64,000 nucleotides of DNA from Acidobacteriota bacterium (GCA_965217775.1 CBDCJH010000002.1:1760001-1824000), one strand, 5' to 3'. Shown: positions 46,509 through 62,804, counted from the first letter of the stretch. Notes: generated by a model from the letters alone, not told the origin. Translations and numbers: made by a program.

Positions 46509-46615
46509 GGAAAAAGGGGACAGTCTCGTTTCCAGCAGCAGCGTTCGCCGGTTGCCCAACGCCCCCCGAAGGGGACAGTCGAAGTGAAAAAGGGGACAGT
46601 CTTTTTTCCGGGACG
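46509..46615 (+). repeat. Three GGGACAGTC hairpin-motif copies (cores at 46517, 46572, 46593)
   Basis: GGAAAAAGGGGACAGTCTCGTTTCC; GAAGGGGACAGTC; GAAAAAGGGGACAGTCTTTTTTCCGGGACG. Confidence 0.85.
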
Positions 46616-46648
46616 CTTCCGCTTGACCCATTCAGGAGGACAGAGACC

Positions 46649-47809
46649 ATGAAAATCACCGACGTCAAGGCTTACGTGGTCAAGCCCAGGTATCCGGACA
46701 AAGCCGGAACCTTCGAGGGGGACTGGACCTTCGTCCGCATCGACACCAACGAAGGCATCCATGGCTGGGGCGAGGCCAGCAACTCTCCTGGCGGCGGCTG
46801 CTTCCTGAGCGCCCGGACCATCGAGCTGCTGCGCCAAAGCCTCGTGGGGCAGGACCCTTTTGAGAGCGAGAGGTTGTGGCAGCAGAACTACCGGCGCTTC
46901 ACCTACCTGGGGGCGCAGGGCCTGCCGACCGTGGCCCTGAGCGGTGTGGACATCGCCCTGTGGGATATCAAGGGGAAGGCCCTGGGCCGCCCGGTCTACG
47001 ACCTGCTGGGCGGCAAGCTGCGCGACAGCATCCGGCTCTACGCCAACGGCTGGTTCTTCGGCTGCCACACCCCCGGGCAGTATGGCGCGGCCGCCAAAGC
47101 CACCGTCGAGGCCGGCCATCAAGCCCTCAAGCTGGATCCCTTCCTGGAGATGCTGCCCTTCCACACCGGCTATCTCTCCGGCCAGATTTCAGCCGAAGGG
47201 GAGGACCTGGGCTGCGCCATCGTGCAGGCGGTTCGGGAAGCCGTGGGAGACAAAGTGGAAATACTGATCGACGCCCACGGCCACTACAACGTGCCGACGG
47301 CCATCCGCCTGGCCAACCGCCTCTACGAGGAGTCGCAGATCGCCTGGTTCGAGGAGCCGGTGCCTCCCGAAAGCATCGATGCCCTGCGGGCAGTCCGAGA
47401 GCAGGTCGCGCCTTCCATTTGCGTGGGCGAACGCCTCTTCACCCGTTTCGACTTCCTGCCCATCCTGCAGCAGGGGCTGGCCGACTATCTGATGCCCGAC
47501 GTGCTCTGGACGGGAGGCATCACCGAGCTGCGCAAGATCTCCAGCCTGGCCGAAGCCTACTACGTCCCCATGAGCCCCCACAACGCCATGGGGCCGCTGC
47601 AGATCGTGGCCGGCTCCCACGTGATGATGAACACGCCCAACTTCTACCGGCTGGAACACAGCACCTCCTTCATCGAAGCCTACAACCGCCTGACGACCGA
47701 GCCCATGAACTTCCACGGCGGGGAGTTCAGCCTGAGCGGAAAACCCGGCCTGGGCGTGGATTTCGACATGGACGCCCTCCACTCCCATCTGCACCCGGAT
47801 TCGGCTTAA
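46649..47809 (+). CDS. Mandelate racemase/enolase-superfamily dehydratase (galactonate dehydratase-like)
   Basis: GWGEA, SGVDIALWDIKGK, LLGG, KLDP, IDAHG, WFEEP, GER, PHN. Confidence 0.9.
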   Translation: MKITDVKAYVVKPRYPDKAGTFEGDWTFVRIDTNEGIHGWGEASNSPGGGCFLSARTIELLRQSLVGQDPFESERLWQQNYRRFTYLGAQGLPTVALSGVDIALWDIKGKALGRPVYDLLGGKLRDSIRLYANGWFFGCHTPGQYGAAAKATVEAGHQALKLDPFLEMLPFHTGYLSGQISAEGEDLGCAIVQAVREAVGDKVEILIDAHGHYNVPTAIRLANRLYEESQIAWFEEPVPPESIDALRAVREQVAPSICVGERLFTRFDFLPILQQGLADYLMPDVLWTGGITELRKISSLAEAYYVPMSPHNAMGPLQIVAGSHVMMNTPNFYRLEHSTSFIEAYNRLTTEPMNFHGGEFSLSGKPGLGVDFDMDALHSHLHPDSA

Positions 47810-47839
47810 CCCGCATTTCTCAGCGGGGGGCGTGATGAT

Positions 47840-47891
47840 GACGGGGGAAAAAAGGGACGGGAAAAAGGGGACAGTCTATTTTTCCGGGACG
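47840..47891 (+). repeat. GGGACAGTC motif copy (core 47868) with an upstream stutter
   Basis: GACGGGGGAAAAAAGG-GACGGGAAAAAGGGGACAGTCTATTTTTCCGGGACG. Confidence 0.85.
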
Positions 47892-48105
47892 GAAGACACA
47901 GGGCAGACCACAAAGGTGTCGGCTCCTTCGCCTGCAAAGACAACTGAGGTGGTCACTTGGTCAAGTTTCCTCGGATGCTTCCGGAAACGCGAGATTTGCT
48001 GATTTTCTTGAGTTTCCTTCGCCTTTCTTAGTTCTGAATCGTTGTGGTCATCAGAGGTGCGAACCTATCCGCGCCGCGCCGAGTCCGAGTCGTTAACCGA
48101 GGACC

Positions 48106-49047
48106 GTGGCCATGGCCCGAACCGCACGACACAAAAGCACAGAAGCCGCCTTCTATCACCTCACCAATCGAGTCGCCGGCAATTCCGATTGGTTCCCCTT
48201 TAAAAACCACCAAGCCGGTCGCAAACTCCTGGACATGATGTCGTTCTACGTCAATGTCTACCGGTGTCGTTTGGCCGCTTTCCAGATCATGGGCAATCAC
48301 TTCCACTTCGTCATCCATTTTGAGAAACCCCGCCCCCTGTCCCGCGACGAGTTGATGGACAGCGCCCACAAGCTTTATGGACAACAGGCAGAGAAGAAAA
48401 CCGCCGATTGGACCGTCGCCCAGTGGGAGGCTTTCAACCAGCGTCTCTTTGACGTGTCGAAACTGATGGCGAACGTGGACGGGTTCTATGCCCGGTGGTT
48501 CAACCGCAATTTCGGACGACGAGGCCATCTTTGGGGTGATCGTTTCAAGAACCCGGAACTCTTGGGAAGCGAAGCCGTCCAGGACGCCATCCTCTACGTG
48601 GAACTCAATGCCGTCCGGGCCGGACTGGTCAAAAGGCCCGAGCAATGGCAGTGGGGCTCGGCCCGCTGGAGACTCACCGGCGAGGATCAAGATCTGATTC
48701 CACTGGAGGAACTGTTCCCCTCGGATCCCGGAGCGGACGTGTACAGAAGTTACCGGGCTCGCTTGTACTATCGAGGAGCCGTCCCCACCCGGGAGAACCA
48801 GGCTGCGATCCCCCGGTGGATCCTCCTTCAGGAGCAGCGACGTGGATTTACCCGTGCCGGAGCCTTTCTCCGGCGTTTGCGATTTCTGACGGACGGGTTG
48901 GCCGTCGGTCCGGCAGAGAAGGTGGCGCAGTTGCTGGAGACGTATCGAAAGCAAGGTCGATATCGGCGTCGCCGACACCCCATCCCCCAACTGGGCGGAG
49001 TGCTGTTTTCCCTGCGGGAGCAGCGCTCCCACGCCTTCGTCTCGTAG
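48106..49047 (+). mobile_element. RAYT-type (TnpA-REP / IS200-like Y1 HUH) transposase with a C-terminal extension
   Basis: FYHLTNR, MGNHFHFV (HUH), GHLWGDRFK, YVELNAVRAGLV (catalytic Tyr), WQWGS; tail RLRFLTDGLAVG. Confidence 0.88.
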
Positions 49048-49196
49048 ACTCGCCTGATCGCCGACCGTCGATTCTGCCACTCCGGCACCGAACGACCCAG
49101 ATCACGGGAACCACCCAATAGACTGAATTGTCCTCTTAGTGTGTGGAAAGTCCTCCGGACTTCCATCCATTTGCCATGGGTTCACTGCTCTGCTTC

Positions 49197-49290
49197 CGCA
49201 GTCTCTCGCAGTCTCTTCTCAAGACTGTCCCTTTCTGTCTCGACGGCTACCAGACGGCTACCAGACGGCTACCACAAGGGTCGCCCCGAC
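49197..49290. repeat. GACTGTCCC motif (49223) with tandem stutters and a REP-like end
   Basis: CGCAGTCTCT x2; AAGACTGTCCCTTTC; GACGGCTACCA x3 (49242-49274) running into CAAGGGTCGCCCCGAC. Confidence 0.8.
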
Positions 49291-49302
49291 GAACGGTGTC
49301 CC

Positions 49303-50061
49303 CTAGTCGTCCCGGAAACGATCGGCCGTGTCCTGCGGTTCGTATCCCAGGTCCCTCCGGGCGTTGTCCAGTGACCGGTAGTTCCACTTGTTGTCGGAGA
49401 CCACGTAGTAGATCCCGAACTTCAGATCCTCAGGCGCATCGATGCAGCGGCGGATCATCTGGGCGATGTCCGCGTGACTGCACCAGACCGAGAAATCCCG
49501 AACCTCGTTGGGCCGGTCGTTGTAGTGGACGCGGCCGATGCGGAGAGAGATCATGGACAGGCCCCATCGGTCGGAGAAGAACCGGGCCAACGTTTCGCCG
49601 AACGCCTTGCTGCAACCGTAGAGGCCGTTGGGCCGAATCAGCGACGTGTCCACCAAGTCCCAACCGGTCACCTCCTCGTACCGTCCCTCGACCAGGGCAG
49701 CGTAGGGCGGATGCCGTTCCCACTCGCTGACGGCGGCTCCGCTGCTGGCGAAAACAACCCTCTCGACACCCGCCGTCCGGGCCGCCTCGAACACGTTGTA
49801 GGTGCCGACGATGTTGTGCGGGAGCACGTCCTCCCAGGTGGGGTCCCCCTGGGCCATGGCGGCCAGGTGGACGACGGTCTCCACTCCCTCGAAGGCCGGC
49901 CGGATGGCCTCCAGATCGGCAATGTCCGCCTGCAGGCACGGGAGGCCCTCCACCGGACGCCGGTTCAAGGCGCTCAGCTCGTACGCATCTCCCAGTTCCC
50001 GCCGGCAAACCTGCCCGATGAGTCCGCTCATGCCCGTGATCAACACTCTTTTTTTGGCCAT
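49303..50061 (-). CDS. NAD-dependent epimerase/dehydratase (uronate dehydrogenase-like)
   Basis: TGMSGLIG, VHLAA, NIVGTYNV, YGCSK, SLRIG. Confidence 0.85.
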   Translation of the reverse strand: MAKKRVLITGMSGLIGQVCRRELGDAYELSALNRRPVEGLPCLQADIADLEAIRPAFEGVETVVHLAAMAQGDPTWEDVLPHNIVGTYNVFEAARTAGVERVVFASSGAAVSEWERHPPYAALVEGRYEEVTGWDLVDTSLIRPNGLYGCSKAFGETLARFFSDRWGLSMISLRIGRVHYNDRPNEVRDFSVWCSHADIAQMIRRCIDAPEDLKFGIYYVVSDNKWNYRSLDNARRDLGYEPQDTADRFRDD

Positions 50062-50199
50062 GCGGCGATTCTACCGCAGGGCCTCCCAACTCCGCCTGCC
50101 GGGTTTTACCGCCGGTTTTCATTCCCACTTCCAGCCCCTATGATGGGCTCTCGTCTCAACACCCAATTGAATCGGCATCCGGCGAAAGGGAGCGGCAAC

Positions 50200-50934
50200 A
50201 TGTTTCGAAACAAAATCCTCGAGAGAATCAAGAGAGGCGAGAAGGCTCTGGGCCTGTTCATGTCGGACCCTTCCGAAGAACTGGTGGAAATGGCCGGGCG
50301 CATGGGGCTGGATTTCGTCGGCTTCGACGGCCAGCACTCGCCCCTCACTCCGGAACGGGTCGGCACCCTGTGCACCATCGCGGACGGGTTCGACGTCACT
50401 CCCACCATGCGCGTCCCCGATGGGAATGAAAGCACGCTACTGTCCTATTTGGACCGTGGGATCCGCGGCATCACGGTTCCCAACATCCAGACCCGTGAAG
50501 AAGCCGAAAAACTGGTCAAATACACCTATTTCGCACCGCTGGGCCTGCGCAGCTCCACCAGCTACCGCATGGTCATGAACCAGGACGGAAAGGACCGCAA
50601 CACCCTCTTCCAGGAAGTCAACGCCAACCTGATGATCGTCCCCCAACTGGAGAGCGTGACTTCAATCCGGAATTTGGACGAGATCCTTCAGGTGGAGGGG
50701 ATCGACTACCTCGGAGGCGGCCCCGAAGACATGGCCCAGTCCATGGGGATTCCGGGCCGGCATGACGATCCCAGGGTGACCCGGATCTACAAGGAGATGG
50801 AACAGAAGGTCCATGCCGCCGGAAAGCTCATGGCGGGAGACTACATCGAGTCGGTGAACGTCTTCTGGAACGTCAAGGGCGCATTGGAGCAACTGCTTGA
50901 AAGCCACGGCCGCCGCTCTCGCATGACCTGGTAG
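50200..50934 (+). CDS. HpcH/HpaI aldolase/citrate lyase family protein
   Basis: GLDFVGFDGQH, RVPD, LDRGIRGITVP, PLGLRS, QLES, GPEDMAQSMG. Confidence 0.85.
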   Translation: MFRNKILERIKRGEKALGLFMSDPSEELVEMAGRMGLDFVGFDGQHSPLTPERVGTLCTIADGFDVTPTMRVPDGNESTLLSYLDRGIRGITVPNIQTREEAEKLVKYTYFAPLGLRSSTSYRMVMNQDGKDRNTLFQEVNANLMIVPQLESVTSIRNLDEILQVEGIDYLGGGPEDMAQSMGIPGRHDDPRVTRIYKEMEQKVHAAGKLMAGDYIESVNVFWNVKGALEQLLESHGRRSRMTW

Positions 50935-50950
50935 TGAAGACCCCCACCCC

Positions 50951-51904
50951 GTGAAGTACGTCGTCAATCTGCCCATCGCCGGCCCTCTGGCGACTCCCCG
51001 CAGTCTCTCGGCTCTCGCTCGAACCGCCGAGGCCCAGGGAGTCGACATCATCTCCTCCAGTGAGCGCCTGGTCCTGCCCTGCTCCGTCGAGACCCGCTAT
51101 CCGTACGGCGCCACGGGCAAGTTTCCCGGCGGAAGCGGCAGCCAGAAGAGCCTGGAGATGCTGATGACCCTGGCCTTCCTCTGCGGCCAGACCTCCCGGG
51201 TCCGCATCCTGACCTCGGTCCTGGTCCTGCCCTACCGGGATCCGATCCTGGCGGCCAAGATGCTGGCCACCCTGGACGTCCTCTCCGAAGGCCGGCTCAT
51301 CGTGGGCTGCGGCGTCGGCTGGATGCGGGAGGAGTTCGAAGCCCTGGGCCTGCCGGTCCGATTCGAGGACCGGGGCCGCGCCTCGGACGAGTACCTGAGG
51401 GGCATGCAGGAACTCTGGTGTAGCGAGAACCCTGAGTTCAAAGGCAACCACGTCCGTTTCTCCGGGATCGAATTCCATCCCCAGCCGGTACAGCGGCCTC
51501 ATCCGCCTTTCTGGTTCGGCGGCGAGAGCCCCGCGGCCCTCCGGCGCGTCGCCCGCTTCGGAGACGGATGGATGCCCATCGCCGGAAACCCGCGCCATCC
51601 GCTGGACGACGACCGGCAACTCGCCCGGGCGATTGAAAGACTGCGCCGAATGGTGGAGGCCGAAGGCCGGGACCCGGACAAGATTCACGTCCGGTTCGGC
51701 GGAGGGTGGAACGAGTCCCCGCGCCCGGGCCCGGCAGGAGAGAGACTGCCCATGAGCGGCACGGTCCAGCAGGTGGCCGGAGACATCCGCCGCTATCAGG
51801 ATCTGGGAGTCGACCACCTGGGAGTGGGTCTGTTGACGGAGGACCTGTCCGAGAGCCTGGAACGGATCGAGCGCTTCATGACCAGTGTCGTGCCGGTGGT
51901 CTAG
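50951..51904 (+). CDS. LLM-class flavin/F420-dependent oxidoreductase
   Basis: TSVLVLPYRDPILAAKMLATLDVLSEGRLIVGCGVGWMREEF; PVQRPHPPFWFGG. Confidence 0.9.
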   Translation: MKYVVNLPIAGPLATPRSLSALARTAEAQGVDIISSSERLVLPCSVETRYPYGATGKFPGGSGSQKSLEMLMTLAFLCGQTSRVRILTSVLVLPYRDPILAAKMLATLDVLSEGRLIVGCGVGWMREEFEALGLPVRFEDRGRASDEYLRGMQELWCSENPEFKGNHVRFSGIEFHPQPVQRPHPPFWFGGESPAALRRVARFGDGWMPIAGNPRHPLDDDRQLARAIERLRRMVEAEGRDPDKIHVRFGGGWNESPRPGPAGERLPMSGTVQQVAGDIRRYQDLGVDHLGVGLLTEDLSESLERIERFMTSVVPVV

Positions 51905-51917
51905 GAACTTGCGCGAT

Positions 51918-53150
51918 TCACACTCTCAGGAAGATCCTCCGCCGATACATCCACCAGCAGACCAGCCAGAACGTGAGCCCCACCATCACCGACTCGAGGG
52001 CGGGCTCATTGGCGGCTCCCCAGAGCTGGGAGATGTTCTGCCCCAGGTGTGTCCGCAAGGTTGCTGCGGTCCAGTCGGGTAGAAGCATGCTCATCGAGTA
52101 GATCGCTATGGAGTTGGTTCCCACCACCACCAGAGGGAAGGTCCAGCGACGGATCCTGGCGATGTCAATCAGGACGTAGAGTCCTCCCAGGATCAGGCAG
52201 CACCAGCCCGTCGAAAAGATTGCCCAGGAGGGTGTCCAGATCCGCTTGACAAGTGGACAGACACCCGTCCAATCGAGGATCAGCCCTACGGTCAGACCGA
52301 GAATCCCCGCTGCCAGAAGTGTTCTGAGCTTGGTTCTGGCCGAGCGGTGCGAGCGCAGGAACCCGCCCACCATCAGGCCGAAAAGCATGGTGGCCAGGGA
52401 GGGAATAAAATTGATGGTCTGATACCCTCCTCCGTTGTGGACGAACGGCTCCTGGCGTGGCAACTGGTTCAGCAACCAGCCGTCAACGGCATGACCGACG
52501 TTGGCGTTCTTATGCCAGGCTGGAGACACTTCCGCCAGATGTCGCTGAGCCCACTCCGGTTGAACACCCACCTCAGGCGAGCCGCTCGGAAGCTCGACAC
52601 CGGCTCCGGGATACAGGACGTACAACATCCAGGTCAGGATCAGGACGAACACTGCCCCAAGGGCCTGACTTCGAATTCTTCGACGCCAGAACAAAAAGAG
52701 GAAGGTGTAGCCCAGCCCGATCTGCGTCAGGACATTCATCAGTGACCAATTGGTGCCGGAGAGCGAATCGGAAATCAGGAAGATGCCCAGAAGGATGAGG
52801 ACGGCGGATCTCCCGAGGGCGTGGCGCAGCATCTTGCCGTACGAGTGCCCCAGTCCCGATCGTTTGGCATAGGAGTAGGCCATCGACACTCCCACCATGA
52901 ACATGAAGGAGGGTTGGATCAGATCCCAGTAGCCACATCCGGTCCAGGGGACGTGGGAAAACTGGTAATGAACCGTCTGCCAGAAGGAAGAGTCCGGGTT
53001 GGTTGCCAGATGATTCTCGGCCGTCTCCCTGAGACCGAAACCCTTGAAGGCGAGGGAGACCATGATCAGTCCACGATAGGCGTCAAGAGACAGCAACCTC
53101 TGTTGCTGCCGGTTGCTTTTCGCGACCTCGGATTCACCGTGGGATCCCAC
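51918..53150 (-). CDS. Membrane acyltransferase (DUF5009 / HGSNAT-like)
   Basis: RLLSLDAYRG, WDLIQPSFMFMVG, VKRIWTPSW, GTNSIAIY, MYRRRIFLRV. Confidence 0.88.
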   Translation of the reverse strand: MGSHGESEVAKSNRQQQRLLSLDAYRGLIMVSLAFKGFGLRETAENHLATNPDSSFWQTVHYQFSHVPWTGCGYWDLIQPSFMFMVGVSMAYSYAKRSGLGHSYGKMLRHALGRSAVLILLGIFLISDSLSGTNWSLMNVLTQIGLGYTFLFLFWRRRIRSQALGAVFVLILTWMLYVLYPGAGVELPSGSPEVGVQPEWAQRHLAEVSPAWHKNANVGHAVDGWLLNQLPRQEPFVHNGGGYQTINFIPSLATMLFGLMVGGFLRSHRSARTKLRTLLAAGILGLTVGLILDWTGVCPLVKRIWTPSWAIFSTGWCCLILGGLYVLIDIARIRRWTFPLVVVGTNSIAIYSMSMLLPDWTAATLRTHLGQNISQLWGAANEPALESVMVGLTFWLVCWWMYRRRIFLRV

Positions 53151-53640
53151 GAACGCCCCTCCGTCGAGTCGACATCAACAATCTACGATGATCAGCATGC
53201 TGGCACCGTCCGCATGGTGATTCAACTGACCATGGATGGCCTTTCTGCTGCTCAGTATCCCGGTGTGGCGAGCTTTTCTGTGCCGTTAGGCCCAATTCCT
53301 CGTCACCGACACGAAAATCGATTTGTTTAAAAGCATTTCAGTGGTTTTCTCAGCCATATGAATTCAAGCGCTGCCCTGCCGGCTCGAATGCGGTGATGAA
53401 AGCCGAAATCCGGCGATGTCCAGGGGTATTCGACCTTTCACGGGCACTCGTGAGCGATGGTTCTCCCCCAAGAGCCGGCTCCAGGGCAGAGTCCGTCCCG
53501 CAGACTTCCAACTTGGCGTCTTCCCAACGGCGGGTTCGCGGTAACAGCGAAGCGGATGGGTTTGCACTCGGGCCAGAACCGTCCGCAACCATGCCGCGTA
53601 CGGGTAGCTCTCGGAAAACGACAACCAGACCTTGCTCGCA

Positions 53641-53711
53641 CGCACACACAGAGAGGAGGTGCGCACACACAGAGAGGAGGTGACCAGAGAGGAGGTGACT
53701 GTCCCTTTCTC
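53641..53711. repeat. GACTGTCCC motif (53697) preceded by tandem stutters
   Basis: CGCACACACAGAGAGGAGGTG x2, then CAGAGAGGAGGTGACTGTCCCTTTCTC. Confidence 0.85.
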
Positions 53712-53914
53712 ATTCTGGTTTTTTGCGGGGAACACCACAGGAAAGAGTCCCCCTCGGCATCGGTCGGAATCCCCTGTCGCCTCTCTCGTGGCCGTTGTCC
53801 GCCGGTTCTGGTCCCCCGGGGCGACCGTTGGTATTCTCCAATGCACGCCTGACGGGTGGGGAAGTGCCCAGGACACGCCGTACCCATCCGGTCTAGGCTG
53901 GATCAGGAGTCCGT

Positions 53915-56290
53915 ATGATCAGTCCTCTACTTAGCTCATTCTCGAGTTCGTTTTTTGCTGGGTGGCTGTTTTTCGTTCTGTCACCGACGCAAACTGGCGG
54001 CCCCCCGTCAGAGAACGTCCGCCGACAGGCGGACGACTCGATTGTCCGACAGGAGCAGGAAGAGAAGGTTCTATACTTCCCGGATTATGTGGATGGCGGG
54101 GGCTGGTCGGTGCAACTAGTGCTCAGCAACGTCGACCCGAACGCCGCCGCCGAGATCCGGGTGGAAGTCTACGACCCGGACGGACAAAACCTTCGGGATC
54201 TATTCGATTCCGATTTGACGTTGGAGATTCCGGCGCTGGGCACTCGAGTCTTGAGAAGCGCCGGTTCAGGAGCCATTCGGCGGGGTTGGATCCGGATCGA
54301 GACCGATGCCGGCACCGTCAGTGGATTGTTGACCTACCGGCACGCCCAATCAGGGATCGAAGTCGTCGTCGAGCCCGCCCAATTGGGGAAGGAGTTCGCT
54401 CTGTTCGTGGAGGAATCAGAGACCGTCGGGGCGGGACTGGCCCTCTTCAAACCGGATGCGGAATCCAGGATCGAGGTGAGACTGCGCGACGAGGAGGGGA
54501 ACGATCCGTTGAACGGATTGTTCGTCCCCTGGGGGGATTTCCACCAGGCGGCGCGCACGCTCCCGGAATGGTTCGCCGTTGAAGGAATTGATATGGGATT
54601 TCTGGAGGACTTCCACGGCTTCCTGTTCCTACGAAGTGAGGACGGCACCCCCTTCGCTCCGCTCGGGCTGCGGTTCGGGAAGCGGACCTCTTCACTCTCG
54701 GCGGTGCCGGCGATTCGGGTCCCGGACGGAGGCGGGAACGACGGTGGCCATCCACCCCCGCCGACATCGATCGATCAGGGTCAGAGCACGACGTTGACGT
54801 GGCCGTCGACGAGTGCGGCGAGTGCGGAGATCACCCCGGACATCGGCGTGGTGCCCACTTCGGGTTCGCGGAAGGTGTCGCCGGACGTCACCCCGCCCTG
54901 CCACATCAACGTAACAGGGGCCGACGGACAGACCGCCATGGCGTCGGTCACGGTGACCGCCCTGACGGAATGTGATCGGGTCGGCGTCCCGGTCGAGCCG
55001 GTATCCGGAGAGCCGGCGGCCGCGATCCGCATTGTGGCAGGCGAGGGGCAACGCGCGTTCACCGAGCGCACCCTCGACAAGCCCCTTGTAGTTCGCGTTC
55101 TCGACACGTCAGATCTGCCTGTTTCCGGGGTGGCCGTGAACTTCGTACCAACGCCGGAAAGCGGTCGGGTGGATCCCTCGACCGCAGCCACGGATTCGAA
55201 CGGCGAGGTCGCGGTGGAGTGGACCATGGGCTCCGCGGCCGGTATCCAGACGCTCATAGTCGCCGCAGGCCTGGCTATTACGGGTGTCAACGTCTACGCG
55301 ATCGACCTCGAGTCCGAACTCGACAACGTTTTTGCCGCGCCGACCGCCGCGGAGATCGAGGCCGTTCGTGCAGACTGGGCCGCGCGTGACATCTCTGCGG
55401 TTGACGTGTTCGTTGAATTCACGGAGACGTATCCCCTGGGCGAAACCCCGGCGACCCTGCGCGTGGTGTCGCATCAGGTCGGGGAGGTGCGCCACTACGG
55501 GGCGATCCTTGCGCCCGACTCTGCGGCACCCGGGACGCTGCCCGTCCTGATGTACCTGCACGGCGGCGACAGCGGTGTCGACGTGGGCGACATCGATATC
55601 GTCGGGTATTCCTTGGGCGAGCTGCGAGACAGCTTCGTCTACGTAATCCCGTCTTTTCGCAGCGAACGGCTTGAATATGGCGATAGCGTGTGGGTCTCGA
55701 CCGGATCTGGCGGTCACTGGGACTACGATGTGGACGACGCCCTGGCGCTCTTGAACGTGGCTCTGGAGCTGACTCCGCAGGCGAAGTCCGAAGGTGTGAG
55801 CATCGTCGGCGGAAGTCGTGGAGCGGGCGTCGCCATGCTGGCCGGCATCCGCGACGAGCGCATCGAGAACATCGTCGCCTTCTTCGGTCCCACCGACTTC
55901 TTCGACGACTGGGTGCGGCAAATCGTGCGCGAGGCGGTCCTGGGGCGTCCGCGCCAGCTCACGGGCGTGGCCCACATGGACTCCACTTTCGTTCAGCCCT
56001 ACATGAGAGGCGAGATCGAACTGGCTGAGTTGCGCCTGGAGTTGGTGCGCCGCTCCTCCGTCCTGTTCGCCGAAGACCTGCCGGGCGTCCAGCTGCACCA
56101 TGGCGATTCCGACGAGACCGTCGCCGTCAGCCAAGCGTACTCGATGATCCGTACCATGGAGGCCTTGGGACGCGAGCCTCCCGAGTTCGAGGCCTTCATC
56201 TACGAGGGTGGAGGACACGAGGTGTTCGGTCTAAGGGGTGCCATTCCGCGGGCGGTGCGGTTCCTGTGGCGTGCCCTGGGAAGGGAATAA
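53915..56290 (+). CDS. Exported multidomain protein: beta-sandwich, Ig-like domains and an S9-like alpha/beta hydrolase
   Basis: YFPDYVDGGGWSVQLVLSN; GVAVNF..TDSNG (Big_1-like); YLHGG, GGSRG nucleophile, HGDSDETV, YEGGGH. Confidence 0.75.
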   Translation: MISPLLSSFSSSFFAGWLFFVLSPTQTGGPPSENVRRQADDSIVRQEQEEKVLYFPDYVDGGGWSVQLVLSNVDPNAAAEIRVEVYDPDGQNLRDLFDSDLTLEIPALGTRVLRSAGSGAIRRGWIRIETDAGTVSGLLTYRHAQSGIEVVVEPAQLGKEFALFVEESETVGAGLALFKPDAESRIEVRLRDEEGNDPLNGLFVPWGDFHQAARTLPEWFAVEGIDMGFLEDFHGFLFLRSEDGTPFAPLGLRFGKRTSSLSAVPAIRVPDGGGNDGGHPPPPTSIDQGQSTTLTWPSTSAASAEITPDIGVVPTSGSRKVSPDVTPPCHINVTGADGQTAMASVTVTALTECDRVGVPVEPVSGEPAAAIRIVAGEGQRAFTERTLDKPLVVRVLDTSDLPVSGVAVNFVPTPESGRVDPSTAATDSNGEVAVEWTMGSAAGIQTLIVAAGLAITGVNVYAIDLESELDNVFAAPTAAEIEAVRADWAARDISAVDVFVEFTETYPLGETPATLRVVSHQVGEVRHYGAILAPDSAAPGTLPVLMYLHGGDSGVDVGDIDIVGYSLGELRDSFVYVIPSFRSERLEYGDSVWVSTGSGGHWDYDVDDALALLNVALELTPQAKSEGVSIVGGSRGAGVAMLAGIRDERIENIVAFFGPTDFFDDWVRQIVREAVLGRPRQLTGVAHMDSTFVQPYMRGEIELAELRLELVRRSSVLFAEDLPGVQLHHGDSDETVAVSQAYSMIRTMEALGREPPEFEAFIYEGGGHEVFGLRGAIPRAVRFLWRALGRE

Positions 56291-56356
56291 AGTAGCTTAT
56301 GGGGCTGACCTTTTGCCGGAGTTGGAGGAATCTTTCGGAGAGGGAGGTGACGTCAC

Positions 56357-56683
56357 GTGAAAACACGCCGCAAGTTCCCCGCCGGTACAGTCCTCGTCAC
56401 GGCGATCCTGGGGGCAGTTTCTCTCAGCCCATCCAGAATGGCGCACGCGGGACCCGAGGAGTACGAGCGCGTCTATTGGGACAAGGGAGACGCGAGGAAG
56501 GTCATCGCCCGCGCGACAGCAATCGACATGGGGAACACCAGTGAGATGCTCCTTCGCATCACTGCAGCCGCATTCAATACCGAACCGAACAGAGACGAGA
56601 CCACTTCTGGCGTCTGGCTCACAGACGACGTCTGCTGGTCACTGGCTATTCTTGTGCAAGAGGAATTAACGACGGACCGATGA
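56357..56683 (+). CDS. Exported hypothetical protein, possibly frameshifted near its end
   Basis: GGAGG RBS, signal peptide ending in AHA; an alternative frame continues TDEEKEKFYESF. Confidence 0.4.
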   Translation: MKTRRKFPAGTVLVTAILGAVSLSPSRMAHAGPEEYERVYWDKGDARKVIARATAIDMGNTSEMLLRITAAAFNTEPNRDETTSGVWLTDDVCWSLAILVQEELTTDR

Positions 56684-57812
56684 GGAGAAGGAGAAATTTT
56701 ACGAGTCCTTCGTGGAAACGGGTGCATGCCGTGAAGCCCGACACCCCGCCCGAGCACCGGGATTGGTATCCGCAGGGGACAGACTCACCGACAACCGAAA
56801 CGGAACAAATGAAGCGACCTTATGATGCCTAAAAAGAATCTTCGAGGTGACCGCTGGGATACGGATTCGATGATTTGGAACGCCATTCGTATACGGGTCG
56901 TTGCCCGAGCTGTTGTGGTCTCATCGGGATTCCCATACCTACTGGACGCACCTCCACGAAAAGCGTTGGGGCGTGTTTCGAACCAGTGAACTCAGTCAGG
57001 CCTTAACGGTGATACTCAACGCCTACAGTAAGCGGTGGGGCGATTCCGCCTATAGCGCGGACACTTATGGGTGAGTCGCCTGCCGAGAGACAAGCCTGCG
57101 CTGCCCCGTCGCTGAAGAGGATTCTGCGTCGCCTCCTCTGTGGTGGAGCCTTTTCCTCCGCTGGATCGCAGTAACGTACTTTATCGACATTAATTCGAGG
57201 CCCCCGCCGCAGACCAATCCGGGCCGCCCACCCTCCACGCGGGGACTCCGCAAATCCGGCCGGCCCCGTAGAGGGCCTCTGCCGCGTCGGCTCCAGGCGC
57301 GCCCGCGCCCGGCCGGGCCGGATTTGGCCGGAACGGGGGATTTTCGGAAGATCCGGAGAAGAAAACGCGCTCAGAGGGCCTGTGCCGGCCTGGCGAGCCC
57401 GGACCAACGGTTAGGTGATAGGCCCTGGAGCTACACCCAGGCTCCGCCAGCGTCTCGCGGCGGAGGGGGAATTTTGCAGAACGGGCGCGCGGGTATTTTG
57501 TGGTCCGAGAGATCTGGACCTCGAGCGGTCTGAGAAACGCGATCCTGCTTCCGGAACTCGGCCGGGGATTCGTTTGTTTCCAGGGGGTTGCGGAAGCGTA
57601 CATCGTTCGCTCGAATGAATAATCCCCGCTCTCTGACTTGATACACAGGCCTCCGGCGGTCCGCGGCGGCCGGGGGGAGCTCCACCGGGTCAATTTGGAC
57701 GTCTCCGAGACCCTGCAGGGCCGACTTGAGGCGTGGAGTCCGCCCGATTTTGGCGAAAATCGGCCTACAGGACCTCGCTGACGACAGAACCTGACTCCGC
57801 CGGCGTTGGATC

Positions 57813-58151
57813 ATGTCTGAAACGATGCGAAAACGCCGGAAGCTCAACACCAGAGCCGGCCGGCTGGCGGCCCGCGAGCGAGTCCGTCAACTGGTGAGTG
57901 AGCACGATGACCAGATGGTGCTCCTGGTCTGGGGTGGCCGAGTGCTCGGCTGGTCGCTCCGCCGGATCGCAGCGGCCCTGGAGGGGTCAGTAGCTCCCCC
58001 CGGCCGCCGGGCGGGGTACGCGGCCGGGAAGTGGACGGCAGCCGCTGTCCAGCGGATTTGCCGCCGCCACGGCATTCCCACGGACCGGCCCGCCGAGCCG
58101 CCCCGTGCGTTCCTCGCGGACGTGAGGGGTTCTGAAGCGCGGGATTACTGA
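57813..58151 (+). CDS. Small protein with a serine-recombinase-type DNA-binding (recombinase) domain
   Basis: GWSLRRIAAALE...PPG......GKWTAAAVQRI. Confidence 0.5.
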   Translation: MSETMRKRRKLNTRAGRLAARERVRQLVSEHDDQMVLLVWGGRVLGWSLRRIAAALEGSVAPPGRRAGYAAGKWTAAAVQRICRRHGIPTDRPAEPPRAFLADVRGSEARDY

Positions 58152-58251
58152 ATCAGCGGAATGTTTGACTCCAAGGTGAAACTCCGGCCCGAGATCAGCA
58201 TCTAAGGGGAGGTCGATCACCCACGCATCCGGACCCGCGAGGAGGACCACC

Positions 58252-58590
58252 ATGGCGAGACCCACCGATGAGATCATGAACGGGCAAAGAGTGGTCCACG
58301 TCGAGAACGAGGACGAATTCTTCTACTACTCCGATCGGGGTCCGATAACACTTTCCCGCGAGCTGGCGGAATCCCTGGGCTTCAGGGAATACCCCGGCTC
58401 CGCGGAAGAACTGCACGCCGAGGAGTGGGAAGAGACATTGAACGGCGAGCGGGAGTGGGAGGAGTTGCAGAAAGAATGGGCCGAAGAGGAGCGGCGGGCC
58501 GAACACCCGACGGACCCCTCCAGCCCCTTCTATGAAAGAGATGACCGCCCCCTGGCTGTGGTGATCCCGTTCCCAACCAGGGTCCAATAA
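58252..58590 (+). CDS. Acidic hypothetical protein
   Basis: GAGGAGG RBS, ATG start, Glu/Trp-rich. Confidence 0.55.
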   Translation: MARPTDEIMNGQRVVHVENEDEFFYYSDRGPITLSRELAESLGFREYPGSAEELHAEEWEETLNGEREWEELQKEWAEEERRAEHPTDPSSPFYERDDRPLAVVIPFPTRVQ

Positions 58591-58604
58591 AATCAACTTA
58601 TTCT

Positions 58605-58663
58605 GAGAAAAGGTGACTGTCCCCTTCTCGGTCCTCGTCCCCTTCTCGGTCCTCGATCCCCTC
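58605..58663. repeat. GACTGTCCC motif (58615) with a downstream stutter
   Basis: GAGAAAAGGTGACTGTCCCCTTCTC; GTCCCCTTCTCGGTCCTC x2. Confidence 0.88.
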
Positions 58664-58765
58664 ATTTTTCCCAACCCGGTGAGCCCCTTCCGACGAGAAA
58701 TTCACATCTTCTGATGTGGAGCCGCTAATGAGGAGCGGAGTCACTCCATGGCAGTAGGAGGCACC

Positions 58766-59287
58766 ATGATGATTATTCTGACGATGAAATCGAGCCGGAC
58801 TCAGATCCTCGCCTTGTTCCTGGTGGGACTGACCTTCCAGCCGGCGCACGCGGAGGTGATCCCGGGACGCTGGGAGAAGGTCTCCGCCTTGGAAATGGCA
58901 TCAACCGTCACGGTGGAACTGAAAAACGGGGATCGAATTAAGGGCCAGTTCCGAGGCTTGGTGCCATCAGCTCTGGAACTCCGGAGCCCCGCTGGCCGGG
59001 CAGTGATTCCAAAATCGGACATCCAGATGATTGCCACTCTGGCGAAGGATGGTCTGGGCAACGGAGCCGGGATTGGAGCCGCGGTCGGGGCCGGCCTTGG
59101 ACTCGGGGCCTTCGTCCTCGCTGCTCGTACTCGAGGTGGTTTGGATTCGGCACCGGGGACTTTGTTGACCATTGGCGGAATCGGAGCAGGCATAGGGGCC
59201 GCAATAGGCGCGGCTGCCGATGCCGCCACGAAGGGCGAGACCATCGTACTCTACAAAGCCCCTGGAAGTTCTCAGCGTTCCAAATGA
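58766..59287 (+). CDS. Exported glycine-zipper hypothetical protein
   Basis: AGGAGG RBS, signal peptide ending in AHA; GAGIGAAVGAG and GIGAGIGAAIGA. Confidence 0.7.
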   Translation: MMIILTMKSSRTQILALFLVGLTFQPAHAEVIPGRWEKVSALEMASTVTVELKNGDRIKGQFRGLVPSALELRSPAGRAVIPKSDIQMIATLAKDGLGNGAGIGAAVGAGLGLGAFVLAARTRGGLDSAPGTLLTIGGIGAGIGAAIGAAADAATKGETIVLYKAPGSSQRSK

Positions 59288-59432
59288 AGGGGTTCGGAGT
59301 GGTGGCTACCCGATCCGCCGGCAGCCGAGACGCAAACAGCGAACCTTTCAAAATGATGGGGAATTGGCGGTTCTCTTCGGGAACGTCTATGTCCATTAAC
59401 GAAGTTAACGGAAGCACAGGGGTTCGACCCAT

Positions 59433-59557
59433 CAGATGTCGGGGACATCCGCCGCTACCAGGATCTCGAAGTCGACCACCTGGGAGCGGGTCTGTTGACG
59501 GATGACCTGTCCGAGAGTCTGGACCGGATCGAGTGCTTCATGACCACCGTGGCGCCG
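59433..59557 (+). pseudogene. Degenerate duplicate of the LLM oxidoreductase 3' end (51770-51904)
   Basis: GACATCCGCCGCTA...GTCGACCACCTGGGAG...CTTCATGACCA nucleotide similarity. Confidence 0.9.
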
Positions 59558-59559
59558 GG

Positions 59560-59997
59560 GGGGCTCCATTTTTAGAACCGGCATTCGTAGTGAAGGACCC
59601 GGCGTCACTGCCGCGTTCCACTGGGGAGTACGAGATCATCGGGCGAACCGGTGACGGGGACGTGTTGTTCTCGCTTCCATTCCAGATGCCGGAGGTGGCC
59701 GACGGAGATGGGAGATCCTCCTTCGCTTTCGTTCTGCCTGTGCAGCCAGAATGGGCCGATCAGTTGGCCAGCATCACCCTGTCCGGACCCGGTGGCTCGG
59801 TCACGCTGGATCAGGACACCAACCGCCCGGTCACTATCCTGCGAAATCCGCGGACCGGGCAGATTCGTGCCATCCTGCGCGGCGCGGCGGCCGCCCCCGA
59901 AAGCGTGGACGCCACAGTGTCGGCGCTGTCATTGGACCCGGGATTGGAGAGGTTGACCAGCCGCGGAATCCCGGACCCGGAAGGCTGGACACAATAA
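59560..59997 (+). pseudogene. C-terminal fragment of a large exported protein
   Basis: Reading frame PFLEPAFVV...SRGIPDPEGW starts abruptly, fused to the LLM fragment, with no RBS or signal peptide. Confidence 0.6.
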
Positions 59998-60075
59998 TAG
60001 AGGCGGATCGTTCACCCGGAGAACGAACTCCGTAAATTGACGTCCGTTAACTGCAATTAAAAAGGAAGCAGCGCA

Positions 60076-60129
60076 GCGAAAAGGTGACTGTCCCCTTCGC
60101 ATTCGCATTCGCATTCGCATTCGCATTCG
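60076..60129. repeat. GACTGTCCC motif (60086) followed by (TTCGCA)5
   Basis: GCGAAAAGGTGACTGTCCCCTTCGC, then TTCGCA x5. Confidence 0.88.
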
Positions 60130-60187
60130 GGGTCCCATGGAGAAGGTACTGGCGCTCTGCAAGAAGTACGGCGTGGCCTTCGGAACC

Positions 60188-60591
60188 CTACTTTGTGATC
60201 CCGCCAGATTGCCCCCAGCCGGTCGCTTGGCGCTCCCCCCCTTTGTGGTACTCCACTGATACATTGAACGCAGAACCAAAGACATGGGCGCTCACGTATA
60301 GAACTGGCCCGTCTGTCTTGGCTCGGTCATAAGGATCCGAGTAGAGGCCGACTGGCCGCAAGTGCGTTACCGCCGCCAGCCAGAGGCGATGCTCGGTTAA
60401 ACCAATTTTCCTCGCATCGTTGCTCAAGCGTTTCACCACTACTGCCATGGGACGGCAGGCGTTGTACAGCCTCCTCCGGTCCTGGTCGTTAATATGCTGG
60501 CCTTGATGGGGCCGAGCTGAAATACCGCGAAAACAGCGAGTGCAACGAACCAGGTTGGGAGTCTGACGGGCCGGCGATTGCGGGGACTCAT
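60188..60591 (-). pseudogene. Frameshifted exported hypothetical protein
   Basis: Signal peptide MSPRNRRPVRLPTWFVALAVFAVF in one frame; mature-like LYNACRPMAVVV...VSVEYHK in another. Confidence 0.45.
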
Positions 60592-60684
60592 GCGGTGGAA
60601 CCCTACTACACCCTCTCCCGTGGTCGGCATCATTCCATTCGTGACGGTTTACGGATATCATAAAGCTAGGTACTCTGGCGGTTC

Positions 60685-60963
60685 ATGATCCGAAGTTTCA
60701 GCGACCGAAACACCCGGCGCTTCTTCGAGGGCCGTCGGGTGGGAGCGTTCCAGGGATTCGCAGATCAGGCCGTGCGCCGTCTCACCCTGTTGGACAACGC
60801 GGAGTCCCTTCGAGACTTGGCCGGGTTGCCCAGCAACCGTCTGGAAGCGCTTCGGGGCAACCGGGCCGGCCAGTTCAGCATCCGGATCAATGCGCAGTGG
60901 CGAATCTGTTTTCGTTGGGGAGAGGATGGACCCTACGAAGTCGAGATCGTGGACTATCACTGA
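60685..60963 (+). CDS. higB: HigB/RelE-family toxin
   Basis: MIRSFSD..T..FF, PSNRLEALRGNRAGQFSIRINAQWRICF, VEIVDYH. Confidence 0.92.
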   Translation: MIRSFSDRNTRRFFEGRRVGAFQGFADQAVRRLTLLDNAESLRDLAGLPSNRLEALRGNRAGQFSIRINAQWRICFRWGEDGPYEVEIVDYH

Positions 60964-60973
60964 GGAGGTCGAG

Positions 60974-61315
60974 GTGACGAGCTTTAAAAATGGGATGCGA
61001 CCGGTGCATCCGGGAGAGATCTTGCGGGACGAGTTGGATGCGCTTGGCTTGTCGGCCAATGCGCTGTCGAAGGCACTGGGCGTGCCCGTGAATCGAATCA
61101 CGGCGATCCTGAATGGGCAGCGGGGTGTGACGGCCAACACGGCATTGCGCCTGGCGCGCTACTTCGGGACGACCCCGCAGGTTTGGCTGAATCTGCAGAA
61201 GACGTGGGAGCTGCGGCGGGAAGAGATCAGCGTTGGGAGCTTGATTGCCGAACGCGTCCAGCCCCGGCAAACGATGACGCCGATTGAAGTGACCAGTGTC
61301 GACACCCGATCCTGA
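60974..61315 (+). CDS. higA: HigA antitoxin (HTH)
   Basis: PVHPGEILRDEL, LGVPVNRITAILNGQRGVTANTALRLARYFGTTPQVWLNLQ. Confidence 0.92.
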   Translation: MTSFKNGMRPVHPGEILRDELDALGLSANALSKALGVPVNRITAILNGQRGVTANTALRLARYFGTTPQVWLNLQKTWELRREEISVGSLIAERVQPRQTMTPIEVTSVDTRS

Positions 61316-61435
61316 GTAAATGTCCGGTCAACTGTTCACCCAGTATTTTCTCACCGACGTCATAAAGACCACCTTTGAATGGAGAGCGTCACTCGCCCAA
61401 CCGGAGGACTTCCTCCAGTTCCGAGACAGAAGACG

Positions 61436-62095
61436 ATGATAACCACCAATGTCATCCAGCGGACCTTCTTCGTCAAGATCGGTAATATGACAGGCACTGC
61501 GTTCACCATTGACCGCAACGGTAGGCAATACCTCGTGACGGCCCGCCATATTGCTGGTGGCGCAGTGCAAAGCATGGAGGTCTTCCACAATGGCCGGTGG
61601 ACGTCGCTTAGTGTAAACGCCGTAGGCATTGGACGGAACGACGTCGACGTAGCTGTCTTCGCGCCCAATGTCATATTGTCGCCGCCACATCTTCTAGAGG
61701 CGACCTCTGCTGGATTGACCTACGGACAGCCAGTTTCCTTCCTCGGGTTCCCTTTCGATTGGCAAGGAGGCTTGGCCCACATGAACAACGGTTTCCCGTT
61801 TCCGTTCGTGAAGGCTGGAATCGTAAGTGCACCGCCCAGCCACCGGATTTGGACCGACACCCACGGCAACCGAGGGTTCAGCGGCGCCCCGGTGGTATTC
61901 AAATCGCTATCTGGCGCCGGCAACTCGCCATGGAAGGTCGCGGGCATCGTTGTTAAATCAAAGCCCGATCCTCAGACAGGCGGGAACGCTGGATTCGTCA
62001 TTGCTGAACCAATCAAGGCTGCGACAGCCTTGATGGACGAAAGGCCTATCGGAGCTACAATGTTCGGCGGAACTGCCTCCGGCAAGACATCCTGA
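61436..62095 (+). CDS. Trypsin-like serine protease
   Basis: GTAF, LVTARH (His), DVAV (Asp), FLGFP, GNRGFSGAPV (Ser); no signal peptide. Confidence 0.8.
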   Translation: MITTNVIQRTFFVKIGNMTGTAFTIDRNGRQYLVTARHIAGGAVQSMEVFHNGRWTSLSVNAVGIGRNDVDVAVFAPNVILSPPHLLEATSAGLTYGQPVSFLGFPFDWQGGLAHMNNGFPFPFVKAGIVSAPPSHRIWTDTHGNRGFSGAPVVFKSLSGAGNSPWKVAGIVVKSKPDPQTGGNAGFVIAEPIKAATALMDERPIGATMFGGTASGKTS

Positions 62096-62123
62096 TTAGA
62101 CCTTGCCGGGCGACGATTCACAC

Positions 62124-62158
62124 AGAGAAAAGGTGACTGTCCCCTTCTCACCTTTTCG
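62124..62158. repeat. GACTGTCCC motif (62135) with an inverted stutter
   Basis: AGAGAAAAGGTGACTGTCCCCTTCTCACCTTTTC; TCACCTTTTC is the reverse complement of GAAAAGGTGA. Confidence 0.88.
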
Positions 62159-62725
62159 AGAGGGAAGGTCCAGCGACGGATCCTGGCCACGTCAATCAGG
62201 ACGTAGAGTCCTCCCAGGATCAGGCAGCACCAGCCCGTCGAAAAGATTGCCCAGGAGGGTGTCCAGATCCGCTTGACAAGTGGACAGACACCCGTCCAAT
62301 CGAGGATCAGTCCTACGGTCAGACCAAGAATTCCCGCTGCCAGAAGTGTTCTGAGCTTGGTTTGGGCCGAGCGGTGCGAGCGCAGGAACCCGCCCACCAT
62401 CAGGCCGAAAAGCATGGTGGCCAGGGAGGGAATGAAGTTGATGGTCTGATACCCTCCTCCGTTGTGGACGAACGGCTCCTGGCGTGGCAACTGGTTCAGC
62501 AGCCAGCCGTCAACGGCATGACCGACGTTGGCGTTCTTATGCCAGGCTGGAGACACTTCCGCCAGATGTCGCTGAGCCCACTCCGGTTGAACACCCACCT
62601 CAGGCTAGCCGCTCGTAAGCTCGACACCGGTTCCGGGATACAGGACGTACAACATCCACGTCAGGATCAGGACGAACACTGCCCCAAGGGCCTGACTTCG
62701 AATTCTTCGACGCCAGAACAAAAAG
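62159..62725 (-). pseudogene. Near-identical 567-bp duplicate of acyltransferase segment 52132-52698
   Basis: Colinear nucleotide match with scattered substitutions; bounded by motif copies at both ends. Confidence 0.93.
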
Positions 62726-62804
62726 CGCAGAGCAAAGGTGACTGTCCCCTTTTCGCGACCCGCCCGTCACGCAGAGCAAAGGTGACTGTCCCCTTTTCGC
62801 GACC
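62726..62804. repeat. Two direct 35-bp repeats containing the GACTGTCCC motif (62740, 62784)
   Basis: CGCAGAGCAAAGGTGACTGTCCCCTTTTCGCGACC at 62726-62760 and 62770-62804. Confidence 0.9.

Follow-up and report, generated by a model that had tools for sequence, protein, structure and literature searches.

The DNA analysed here, referred to as the window, is a stretch of 64,000 nucleotides from the genome of an Acidobacteriota bacterium (G000:C2:1760001-1824000); feature coordinates are counted from its first letter. It contains a gene for a tyrosine transposase of the Y1 HUH type, accompanied by copies of a short repeat with the nine-nucleotide core GACTGTCCC (Table 1). A previous description made from the sequence alone (the original prediction) had interpreted this region as an array of oriented hairpins that is centred on a RAYT gene and divides an accessory region into cassette-like blocks. 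The comparisons presented below make it likely that the locus is one TIRtron copy, belonging to a multi-copy family of HUH transposase genes and to a family of repeats.

The core was found 11 times in the window, between positions 46517 and 62792, i.e. in the last 18 kb. In dinucleotide-shuffled versions of the window 1.07 copies were expected (sd 1.05), and 11 or more were reached in none of 100 shuffles. The four cores left of the transposase open reading frame (ORF), starting at 46517, 46572, 46593 and 47868, are all on the minus strand, and the seven cores right of it, starting at 49223, 53697, 58615, 60086, 62135, 62740 and 62784, are all on the plus strand. A search of the first 46 kb of the window gave no copy. 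On all these points (number and coordinates of the copies, opposite strands on the two sides of the gene, motif-free first 46 kb) the recount agreed with the original prediction. The two repeat subtypes that it had distinguished were also recovered, and the set was widened to four (A, B, C and D).

Table 1. Features of the window. Cores are copies of GACTGTCCC; subtypes are defined in the text.
Feature	Position	Strand	Remark
Solo motif copy, subtype A-like, core 46517-46525	46509..46533	-	
Partial copy (core 46572-46580), then full subtype B copy (core 46593-46601)	46566..46615	-	Partial tandem 'stutter' duplicate pair
Enolase-superfamily gene (MR_MLE_N/C), block E	46649..47809	+	
Whole insertion/deletion unit, block R	47811..49307	+	Metagenome contig joints; G004 and G008 without block R
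Left terminal inverted repeat, subtype B, core 47868-47876	47860..47890	-	Homology of the 11 genomic units begins here
5' non-coding part of unit, conserved	47891..48111	+	
Y1 HUH tyrosine transposase, 311 aa, TIRYT-like	48112..49047	+	
3' non-coding part, conserved, closing with right terminal inverted repeat (core 49223-49231)	49048..49240	+	
~350-bp repeat	53287..53635		At least 7 genomic sites, several adjoining a subtype C copy
Accessory island	53300..63650		Missing between the same flanks in four relatives
Subtype C copy (core 53697-53705) with two partial left-arm duplications ending GTG or GTGAC	53648..53715	+	
Subtype C copy (core 58615-58623) with 18-nt tandem duplicate starting GTCCCC	58600..58660	+	
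Subtype C copy, core 60086-60094	60072..60110	+	
HigB-like toxin / helix-turn-helix antitoxin pair	60685..61315	+	
Subtype C copy, core 62135-62143	62121..62150	+	
567-bp copy of an internal piece of a 410-aa gene	62159..62725	+	Between two motif units
Two tandem subtype C copies, cores 62740-62748 and 62784-62792	62726..62805	+	

The 311-aa product of the transposase gene scored 27.3 bits against the Pfam model Y1_Tnp (cut-off 23). Its HUH motif is N62-H63-F-H65 and its catalytic tyrosine motif Y162-V-E-L-N166. The residues N62-H63-x-H65, W141 and Y162-x-E-L-N166 were invariant across 23 homologues with identities down to 51%, which share the signatures NH[FY]H and Y-x-E-L-N. The NCBIfam RAYT model (the REP_Tyr_transpos equivalog) was matched over positions 3-145 of 146, with 50.2 bits where the model requires 80. 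Among PDB sequences nothing matched at E <= 1. When the AlphaFold model of the protein (pLDDT 74, pTM 0.77) was compared with known structures by Foldseek, the top match was the E. coli TnpA-REP protein bound to a REP hairpin (4er8_A; E 3e-6, TM 0.73 on the target), followed by the transposases of IS608, IS200 and ISDra2. The Pfam score and the predicted fold thus supported the original assignment as a RAYT-like Y1 HUH enzyme. Compared with two short RAYT-like genes of G000, the protein has a helical insertion of about 50 aa after the HUH strand and a C-terminal tail of about 130 aa. A tblastn search of G000 revealed 11 full-length copies of the gene (83-100% amino acid identity) and two fragments. 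Four of the copies encode proteins that are 97-100% identical; ten of the 11 have no stop codon, and the median ratio of nonsynonymous to synonymous substitution rates (dN/dS) over 55 pairs was 0.34. The gene was detected in all eight genomes of the same genus, with 3-11 matches in each. The unpublished genome G016 underlies none of the conclusions drawn here.

Alignment of the flanks of the 11 gene copies showed homology reaching about 250 bp upstream and about 190 bp downstream and stopping at a motif copy on each side. The left end reads GGGACAGTC and the right end GACTGTCCC, and around each gene copy a unit of about 1.4 kb is closed by motifs of subtypes A and B in inverted orientation. 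In nine of the 11 units the nearest flanking motifs were on the minus strand at the left and on the plus strand at the right; in two exceptional units the right repeat is broken exactly after GACT by an inverted copy. The predicted flip of orientation at the transposase gene therefore recurred at most gene copies, but it follows from the terminal-inverted-repeat architecture of the repeated unit and not from an array built around a RAYT gene. Replication-strand bias was considered as a cause of the flip and rejected: the cumulative GC skew has its extremes near 1.65 Mb and near 4.95 Mb, away from the window. The core of the end-repeats, GGGGACAG(TC), matches GGGGWSAS, the consensus given for TIRYT end-repeats in the available text of PMC3733652. 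At 13 loci of distant homologues (45-80% identity) an inverted GGGACAG repeat was found about 190-350 bp either side of the gene in eight cases and a variant repeat in one, whereas the other four had no inverted repeat of at least 10 nt. At G000:C2:2873102-2874800 a complete unit is nested inside a second copy, whose 5' leader and first ~24 codons precede the left repeat and whose last codons and 3' flank follow the right repeat. Remnants of units lacking the gene are also present in G000.

Inverted copies of a repeat abundant in intergenic DNA around the gene, a predicted fold closest to TnpA-REP, and the name 'REP element-mobilizing transposase RayT' given by the Joint Genome Institute (JGI) to several of the homologues are features that would also be expected of a classical REP/RAYT system (REPtron or REPIN), i.e. 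of a domesticated single-copy RAYT that keeps hairpin REPs. Such an origin appears extremely improbable and is contradicted on three defining features. The gene is present in 11 copies instead of one. The GT[AG]G foot is absent, the hairpin is weak (see below) and the protein misses the NCBIfam RAYT cut-off. Finally, NH[FY]H, Y[VI]ELN and the long C-terminal tail fit subclasses 2.1/2.3, which in the available sections of PMC6006769 are described as not REP-associated. That the motif differs from REPs beginning with GTAG or CGTC, as originally stated, was confirmed by the subtype consensus sequences, which contain no GT[AG]G.

Mobility of the unit was assessed in the interval flanked by the TIM-barrel and epimerase genes. 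The DNA of the window unit shares 93-95% identity with three other G000 copies, as against 83-92% with the relatives' copies at this locus. G001, G006 and G007 have the unit in the orientation seen in the window; it is inverted in G002, G003 and G005, in the last of these with the enolase gene on its other side. G004 and G008 lack it, and in G008 the TIM-barrel and epimerase genes abut. Block E was found beside the locus in G007 and G005, and remnants of it, which read as adjacent deletions next to the unit, in G001 (198 bp) and G002 (~55 bp). In G003, G004, G006 and G008 no block E was detected at the locus among BLAST matches of at least 150 bp, a threshold that a remnant of the size seen in G002 would escape.

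Joints between the same segments were found in metagenome contigs. The empty joint 47810>49308 was present in two contigs of run X2 and in one of run X6, the joint corresponding to loss of the enolase block (46453>47859/47861) in X2 and X6, the joint 49304>46587 in X1 and X6, and an internally deleted mini-unit (47884>49075) in all four metagenome runs. The sides of these joints are short (30-62 nt) and some are separated by letters given as 'not known'. We read them as structural variation among related populations and not as observed excision events. Of the words sampled from window positions 45800-50000, 21-22% occurred in the sponge metatranscriptomes X11 and X12 and 13-14%, flagged as a small share, in the metatranscriptomes X17 and X18; as they stand, these values carry no information on expression or habitat.

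The motif is not confined to the surroundings of the transposase gene. G000 (6.43 Mb) contains 255 core copies (139 forward and 116 reverse), the reversed-pattern control giving 26. Membership of the repeat family was assigned to copies that have C(0-2) and then a run of pyrimidines after the core; 164 of the 255 passed. When genes were called with our own crude procedure, based on ORFs and codon usage (83% of the genome coding), 155 of the 164 family copies (95%) fell outside genes, while 55 of the other 91 copies were inside genes. The family comprises subtype A, TCGAGACTGTCCCTTTCC (16 copies), subtype B, GGAAAAA[TC]AGACTGTCCCCTTTTT (66 copies), subtype C, GAGAGAAGGTGACTGTCCCCTTCTC (65 copies), and subtype D, GGGGGACAAGACTGTCCCCC, a different perfect hairpin (8 copies); nine copies remain as 'other'. 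About 150 solo or clustered copies lie beyond the 11 transposase units.

The distribution of the subtypes differed. Of the 81 copies belonging to subtypes A and B, 46 were at most 1.5 kb from a copy of the transposase gene. For subtype C on contig C2 the corresponding number was 0 of 55, with one copy within 5 kb and seven within 20 kb, six of these seven being the window's own; the median distance was 301 kb. The proposed genome scan for clustering around RAYT loci was thus positive for subtypes A and B but negative for subtype C, and with 255 copies spread over the genome a RAYT-centred array was not substantiated. Clusters of at least three motif copies numbered 23, of which eight include transposase genes and about nine are subtype C arrays; the array in the window is the only one of the latter that adjoins a transposase unit. 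Neighbouring subtype C copies were co-oriented in 36 of 38 pairs. A bias between replichores was rejected as an explanation of orientation: strand counts of subtypes B and C are mildly skewed (20+/31- and 44+/25-), and the orientation of arrays is mixed within one replichore. The two short RAYT-like genes mentioned above are single-copy (C2:4665597-4666268 and C2:5635256-5635945; 223 and 229 aa, motifs NHVH and YI-x-ENP) and score 78.6 and 70.8 bits on the NCBIfam RAYT model. Just upstream of one of them is a hairpin, GGGGGGACATCCCTGTCCCCC, that resembles subtype D (about 12 copies). They were discarded as candidate drivers of subtype C, no subtype C copies being located beside either.

The 15-mer GACTGTCCCCTTCTC was present in all eight same-genus genomes, with 4-32 copies in each, and in none of six sister-genus genomes, though transposase homologues of 45-55% identity occur there. 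G023, a 3.4 Mb genome from another family of the same order, has a transposase gene of 80% identity and 55 copies of this 15-mer, including dense runs with 35-200 bp spacing at G023:C1:1459209-1460750 and 1487644-1489814. This combination of gene and dense repeats suggests that the whole system has spread horizontally. The right end-repeat of the G023 unit is of subtype C, and subtype C can therefore be tied to the same system; among the current units of G000 none has a subtype C end.

The original prediction held that the stem arms of the repeat covary and that the repeat forms a conserved hairpin in single-stranded DNA (ssDNA). The subtype consensus sequences can indeed pair, e.g. GAGAAGG with CCTTCTC across the loop TGACTGTCC; the resulting fold, however, is weak. 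The mean DNA folding energy of the copies was -3.3 kcal/mol, one third of them being at or below -4 and one third above -2. Mononucleotide shuffles gave -2.99 +/- 0.13, swapping the arms over all copies -3.02 +/- 0.11 (z -2.8), and swapping them within subtypes -3.14 +/- 0.11 (z -1.3). Since the within-subtype swap was so close to the observed value, covariation beyond the subtype consensus was not shown, and a covariation test on perfect stems pointed the same way (3.72 observed, 3.69 +/- 0.07 permuted). This part of the prediction could not be upheld.

Some repeat copies carry partial tandem duplicates of themselves ('stutters'). Duplicates on the right side were found at 26 of 156 copies (subtypes A, B, C and other); 12 of these start at core offset 4 (GTCCC) and four at offset 5. 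Left-side duplicates were found at nine of 156 copies, four of them ending at offset 2 (GAC) and four just before the core. At the site that holds the island in the window, G003 has eight stutter copies within 250 bp. Taken together with the two units interrupted after GACT, the stutters suggest that the GACTGTCCC strand may be broken around the T of GAC-T-GTCCC. Five junctions between a motif unit and a gene fragment were located 9-16 nt outside the core; microhomology and pseudo-sites were looked for at these five junctions, and nothing consistent was seen.

The position of the repeats relative to genes raised a further possibility. Of the intergenic subtype C copies, 42 of 60 are downstream of a gene on the same strand, and REPs of other bacteria, according to the available text of PMC3733652, are mostly downstream of coding regions and act as RNA elements. 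Together with the 95% intergenic location of the family, this is what would be expected if the motif were a host-function element selected at gene ends (a stabiliser of mRNA 3' ends, a terminator or a protein-binding site) that the transposase units carry or target. We regard this as very unlikely. An Rfam search of the window found no family at gathering score, the stem is weak and a T-run is absent. At one orthologous intergenic site the number of motif copies ranges from 0 to 8 among species. The motif bounds the transposase unit in 11 of 11 units, and partial stutter copies are hard to square with a selected site.

The relation of the motif to block edges was examined in the distal part of the window and in a second array. 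The island is missing from the syntenic site in G006, G007, G001 and G002 (window ~53.3-63.6 kb), where 0-3 motif copies are found instead, and G003 has a block with a 791-aa gene besides its eight motif copies; pieces of the island occur elsewhere in relatives. The distal part of the predicted accessory region was thereby confirmed. The segment 62159-62725 is 97.5% identical to 52132-52698, within the 410-aa gene 10 kb upstream, and its edges are 15-16 nt outside the flanking motif cores. A copy of the gene piece 55763-56807 begins 14 nt past a motif at C2:1877686. A hand count put roughly one in two of the window's block edges at 100 bp or less from a motif; for the remainder the distance exceeded 500 bp. 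None of nine homologues of the HigBA block in relatives has a motif within 800 bp.

The second array (C2:2110349-2122562) was compared with eight relatives. About 11 of 19 clusters of block edges (hand count) were within 35 bp of one of its 11 motifs, although such motif-proximal stretches cover only about 5% of the 19 kb. Its blocks are reordered with orientation kept in G006, in G004 and in G007/G002/G003. A block consisting of a GFO oxidoreductase gene between two motifs is duplicated as a unit within G000. Scored as an exact or one-mismatch core, the 5' motif of this block was present in five of seven relatives (G002, G004, G005, G006 and G007) and the 3' motif in four (G002, G003, G004 and G007); in G001 neither was found within about 700 bp. 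In the second array the toxin-antitoxin block is preceded by a motif at 17 nt in G000, 27 nt in G004 and about 45 nt in G003; G007, G002 and G006 have none there. As originally predicted, blocks between motifs differed among relatives in both arrays, and their edges coincided with motifs much more frequently than chance would give, the second array providing the stronger support; about half of the edges in the window did not coincide with a motif.

Several further observations were made in these regions. A fragment of a tyrosine recombinase gene (C2:2115579-2115773, Pfam model positions 102-166) ends beside the subtype C copy at C2:2115790. The ~350-bp repeat of Table 1 was also found at C1:25350-25703 and C2:2122671-2123022, these being among at least six other G000 sites with 73-88% identity; a motif truncates one copy (C2:5279113), and G006 has many copies of part of it. 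Its 106-aa ORF on the minus strand had no Pfam match. The same was true of a 179-aa ORF at window positions 58745-59283, which has more than ten genomic DNA matches at 66-78% identity, with paralogues e.g. at C1:26825-27363 and C2:6210895-6213098. That subtype C repeats are the ends of a tnpB-type insertion sequence was considered and dismissed: the block of 1.4 kb between motifs codes for a GFO/IDH/MocA oxidoreductase and not for a transposase.

These arrangements might be explained by a cassette mechanism, in which DNA between co-oriented motifs is excised as an IS608-like ssDNA circle carrying one motif and is re-inserted at another. Subtype C repeats would then be working recombination sites of the TIRYT enzyme, and the arrays an integrase-free, HUH-driven platform that captures, deletes and re-orders accessory genes, with toxin-antitoxin pairs, oxidoreductases and gene fragments as cargo. 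The edges, permuted order and constant orientation in the second array, the duplicated GFO block with its motifs, the 567-bp fragment set between two motif units and the co-orientation of subtype C copies, with orientation differing between arrays of one replichore, are in line with such a platform. So are the metagenome contigs, which give three joints of the order A-R-E-B (46453>47859, 49304>46587 and 47810>49308), the order in G000 being A-E-R-B. Nevertheless, we consider both the mechanism and the role of subtype C in it doubtful. The motif is missing from the HigBA homologues, and its distance from the toxin-antitoxin block varies, so that the joints are not constant as they are in integron cassettes. 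The predicted integron-like shuffling was partly supported, by block edges at motifs and by permuted block order. About half of the window's edges are remote from any motif, the transposase gene is missing at no fewer than eight of the ~9 subtype C arrays, and the metagenome joints are short-sided. The same pattern could also be produced by independent insertions of units, by small mobile repeats in permissive DNA or by host recombination.

That the locus is one copy of a TIRtron, in a multi-copy family, remained the likely explanation. The system is of a known but little-studied kind and is not a classical REP/RAYT; both the gene and the repeats are multiplied in the genus, and the repeats mark joints of a mosaic accessory genome, which they probably help to make. 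The unit would consist of the TIRYT-type gene with about 250 bp of 5' and 190 bp of 3' DNA, closed by inverted repeats of 25-40 nt (core GGGGACAGTC / GACTGTCCCC). We infer that the enzyme acts in trans on all repeat subtypes, that it breaks the GACTGTCCC strand around the T (GAC^T^GTCCC), and that blocks are rearranged at the repeats. Breakage and rejoining there, by the enzyme or by host recombination, could spread the repeats and leave local stutter copies, and the same breakage of repeat units could give rise to deletions, duplications and re-ordering of the DNA blocks between them.

Some observations weigh against this interpretation. No G000 unit ends in subtype C, so that action in trans on this subtype is an assumption. 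The fragment junctions are at the outer edges of the repeats and the stutters in the core, and no single cut site is indicated. The NCBIfam RAYT score is under the cut-off of the model. The indel 47811-49307 overshoots the end-repeats by 57 and 76 bp, so that the mobile unit need not end at these repeats. The runs (n=23) consist of assembled contigs and no raw reads, and contigs cannot show starts, ends or rare circles; cleavage, circle formation and transposition are putative activities of the enzyme. Finally, the intergenic counts depend on our own gene caller.

Y1 enzymes of the TIRYT/RAYT-like kind are common, and their action on cellular DNA is largely unknown; a cassette platform, if real, would give these functionally unexplained enzymes a role. 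The genus offers an unusually rich natural record of their activity, comprising many intact gene copies, repeats of three subtypes, sites without the unit, units that are inverted, relocated or internally deleted to mini-units, stutters suggestive of a break around the T of GACTGTCCC, and swaps of blocks between repeats among species. It makes two questions directly testable, the cut site of the enzyme and the movement of repeat-bounded blocks.

Among known systems, the REPtrons of E. coli and Pseudomonas share with the present one a Y1 HUH enzyme (4er8 being the nearest solved fold), inverted copies of an abundant intergenic repeat around the gene, and repeats presumed to be mobilised in trans. 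They differ in the GT[AG]G foot, which the subtype consensus sequences lack here, and in the hairpin, which is weak here (-3.3 against -3.0 kcal/mol for shuffled sequences). In G000 the gene has 11 copies, some of them near-identical, in contrast to a single-copy, vertically inherited gene, the repeats are mostly single and co-oriented and not in inverted pairs, and the RAYT model score is 50.2 against the required 80. Transposons of the IS200/IS605 group (IS608, ISDra2) are alike in Y1 HUH chemistry and in multi-copy units, and their cutting and rejoining of two like-oriented sites on the same strand is the mechanistic template of the cassette hypothesis. The IS608 type has subterminal hairpins on the same strand, no inverted repeats and the motif Y---Q, according to the available sections of PMC6006769, whereas inverted ends and YVELN are found here.

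Integron arrays, and clusters of attC sites that lack an integrase, resemble the arrays of G000 in that co-oriented short repeats part unrelated small genes, including toxin-antitoxin pairs, and in that block content and order vary among close relatives. Integrons differ in the integrase: none of the 26 PF00589 matches in the genome is in the window, the nearest (C2:1689242-1691639) being about 70 kb away. The repeat is only 25-40 nt long here, with no attC-type structure shown. Integron cassettes carry their own site, whereas here the motif accompanies 0 of 9 HigBA homologues and stays with the GFO block in most relatives.

The closest parallels are TIRYTs. The available text of Di Nocera et al. 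2013 (PMC3733652) gives the name TIRYTs to RAYT-like genes that have terminal inverted repeats, and not GTAG REPs, on their flanks, and calls the elements TIRtrons. GGGGWSAS is common to their end-repeats, which in some cases make up moderately abundant families of single copies, dimers or clusters. Quentin et al. 2018 (PMC6006769) placed, in the sections available, most TIRYTs in subclass 2.1 (NH[YF]H, Y[IV]ELNP, C-terminal domain) and described a derived subclass 2.3, whose members come from Chromatiales and Alteromonadales, are 325 aa long in the median, carry an insertion of about 55 aa between beta3 and alphaC and the motifs NHYH/YVDLNP, and occur in several copies per genome with no flanking repeats. 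By the motif signatures of their Table 1, the present protein is like both subclasses in NH[YF]H, in a Y[IV]ELNP-like motif (here YVELNA) and in the C-terminal tail. Insertion length, protein length and number of copies per genome match subclass 2.3, from which the clear end-repeats and the large repeat family set it apart. Eleven copies in G000 are unusual, because RAYT groups are given at 1.3-1.8 copies per replicon in the available text of Bertels et al. 2017 (PMC5581495). With TIRtrons, as far as the published description goes, the locus shares a Y1 HUH gene with its catalytic tyrosine, inverted repeats at about 200 bp with the GGGGWSAS core (here GGGGACAG), a moderately abundant repeat family elsewhere in the genome (single, dimer or cluster) and a genome without GTAG REPs; this likeness is drawn from that description and does not settle the placement among its four TIRYT groups. 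Compared with the same account, the gene is here multi-copy (11 in G000, 3-11 matches in eight congeners) and the protein longer (311 aa), and the repeat is split into subtypes, one of which, subtype C, is found at block joints in long co-oriented arrays that stand apart from the transposase gene copies.

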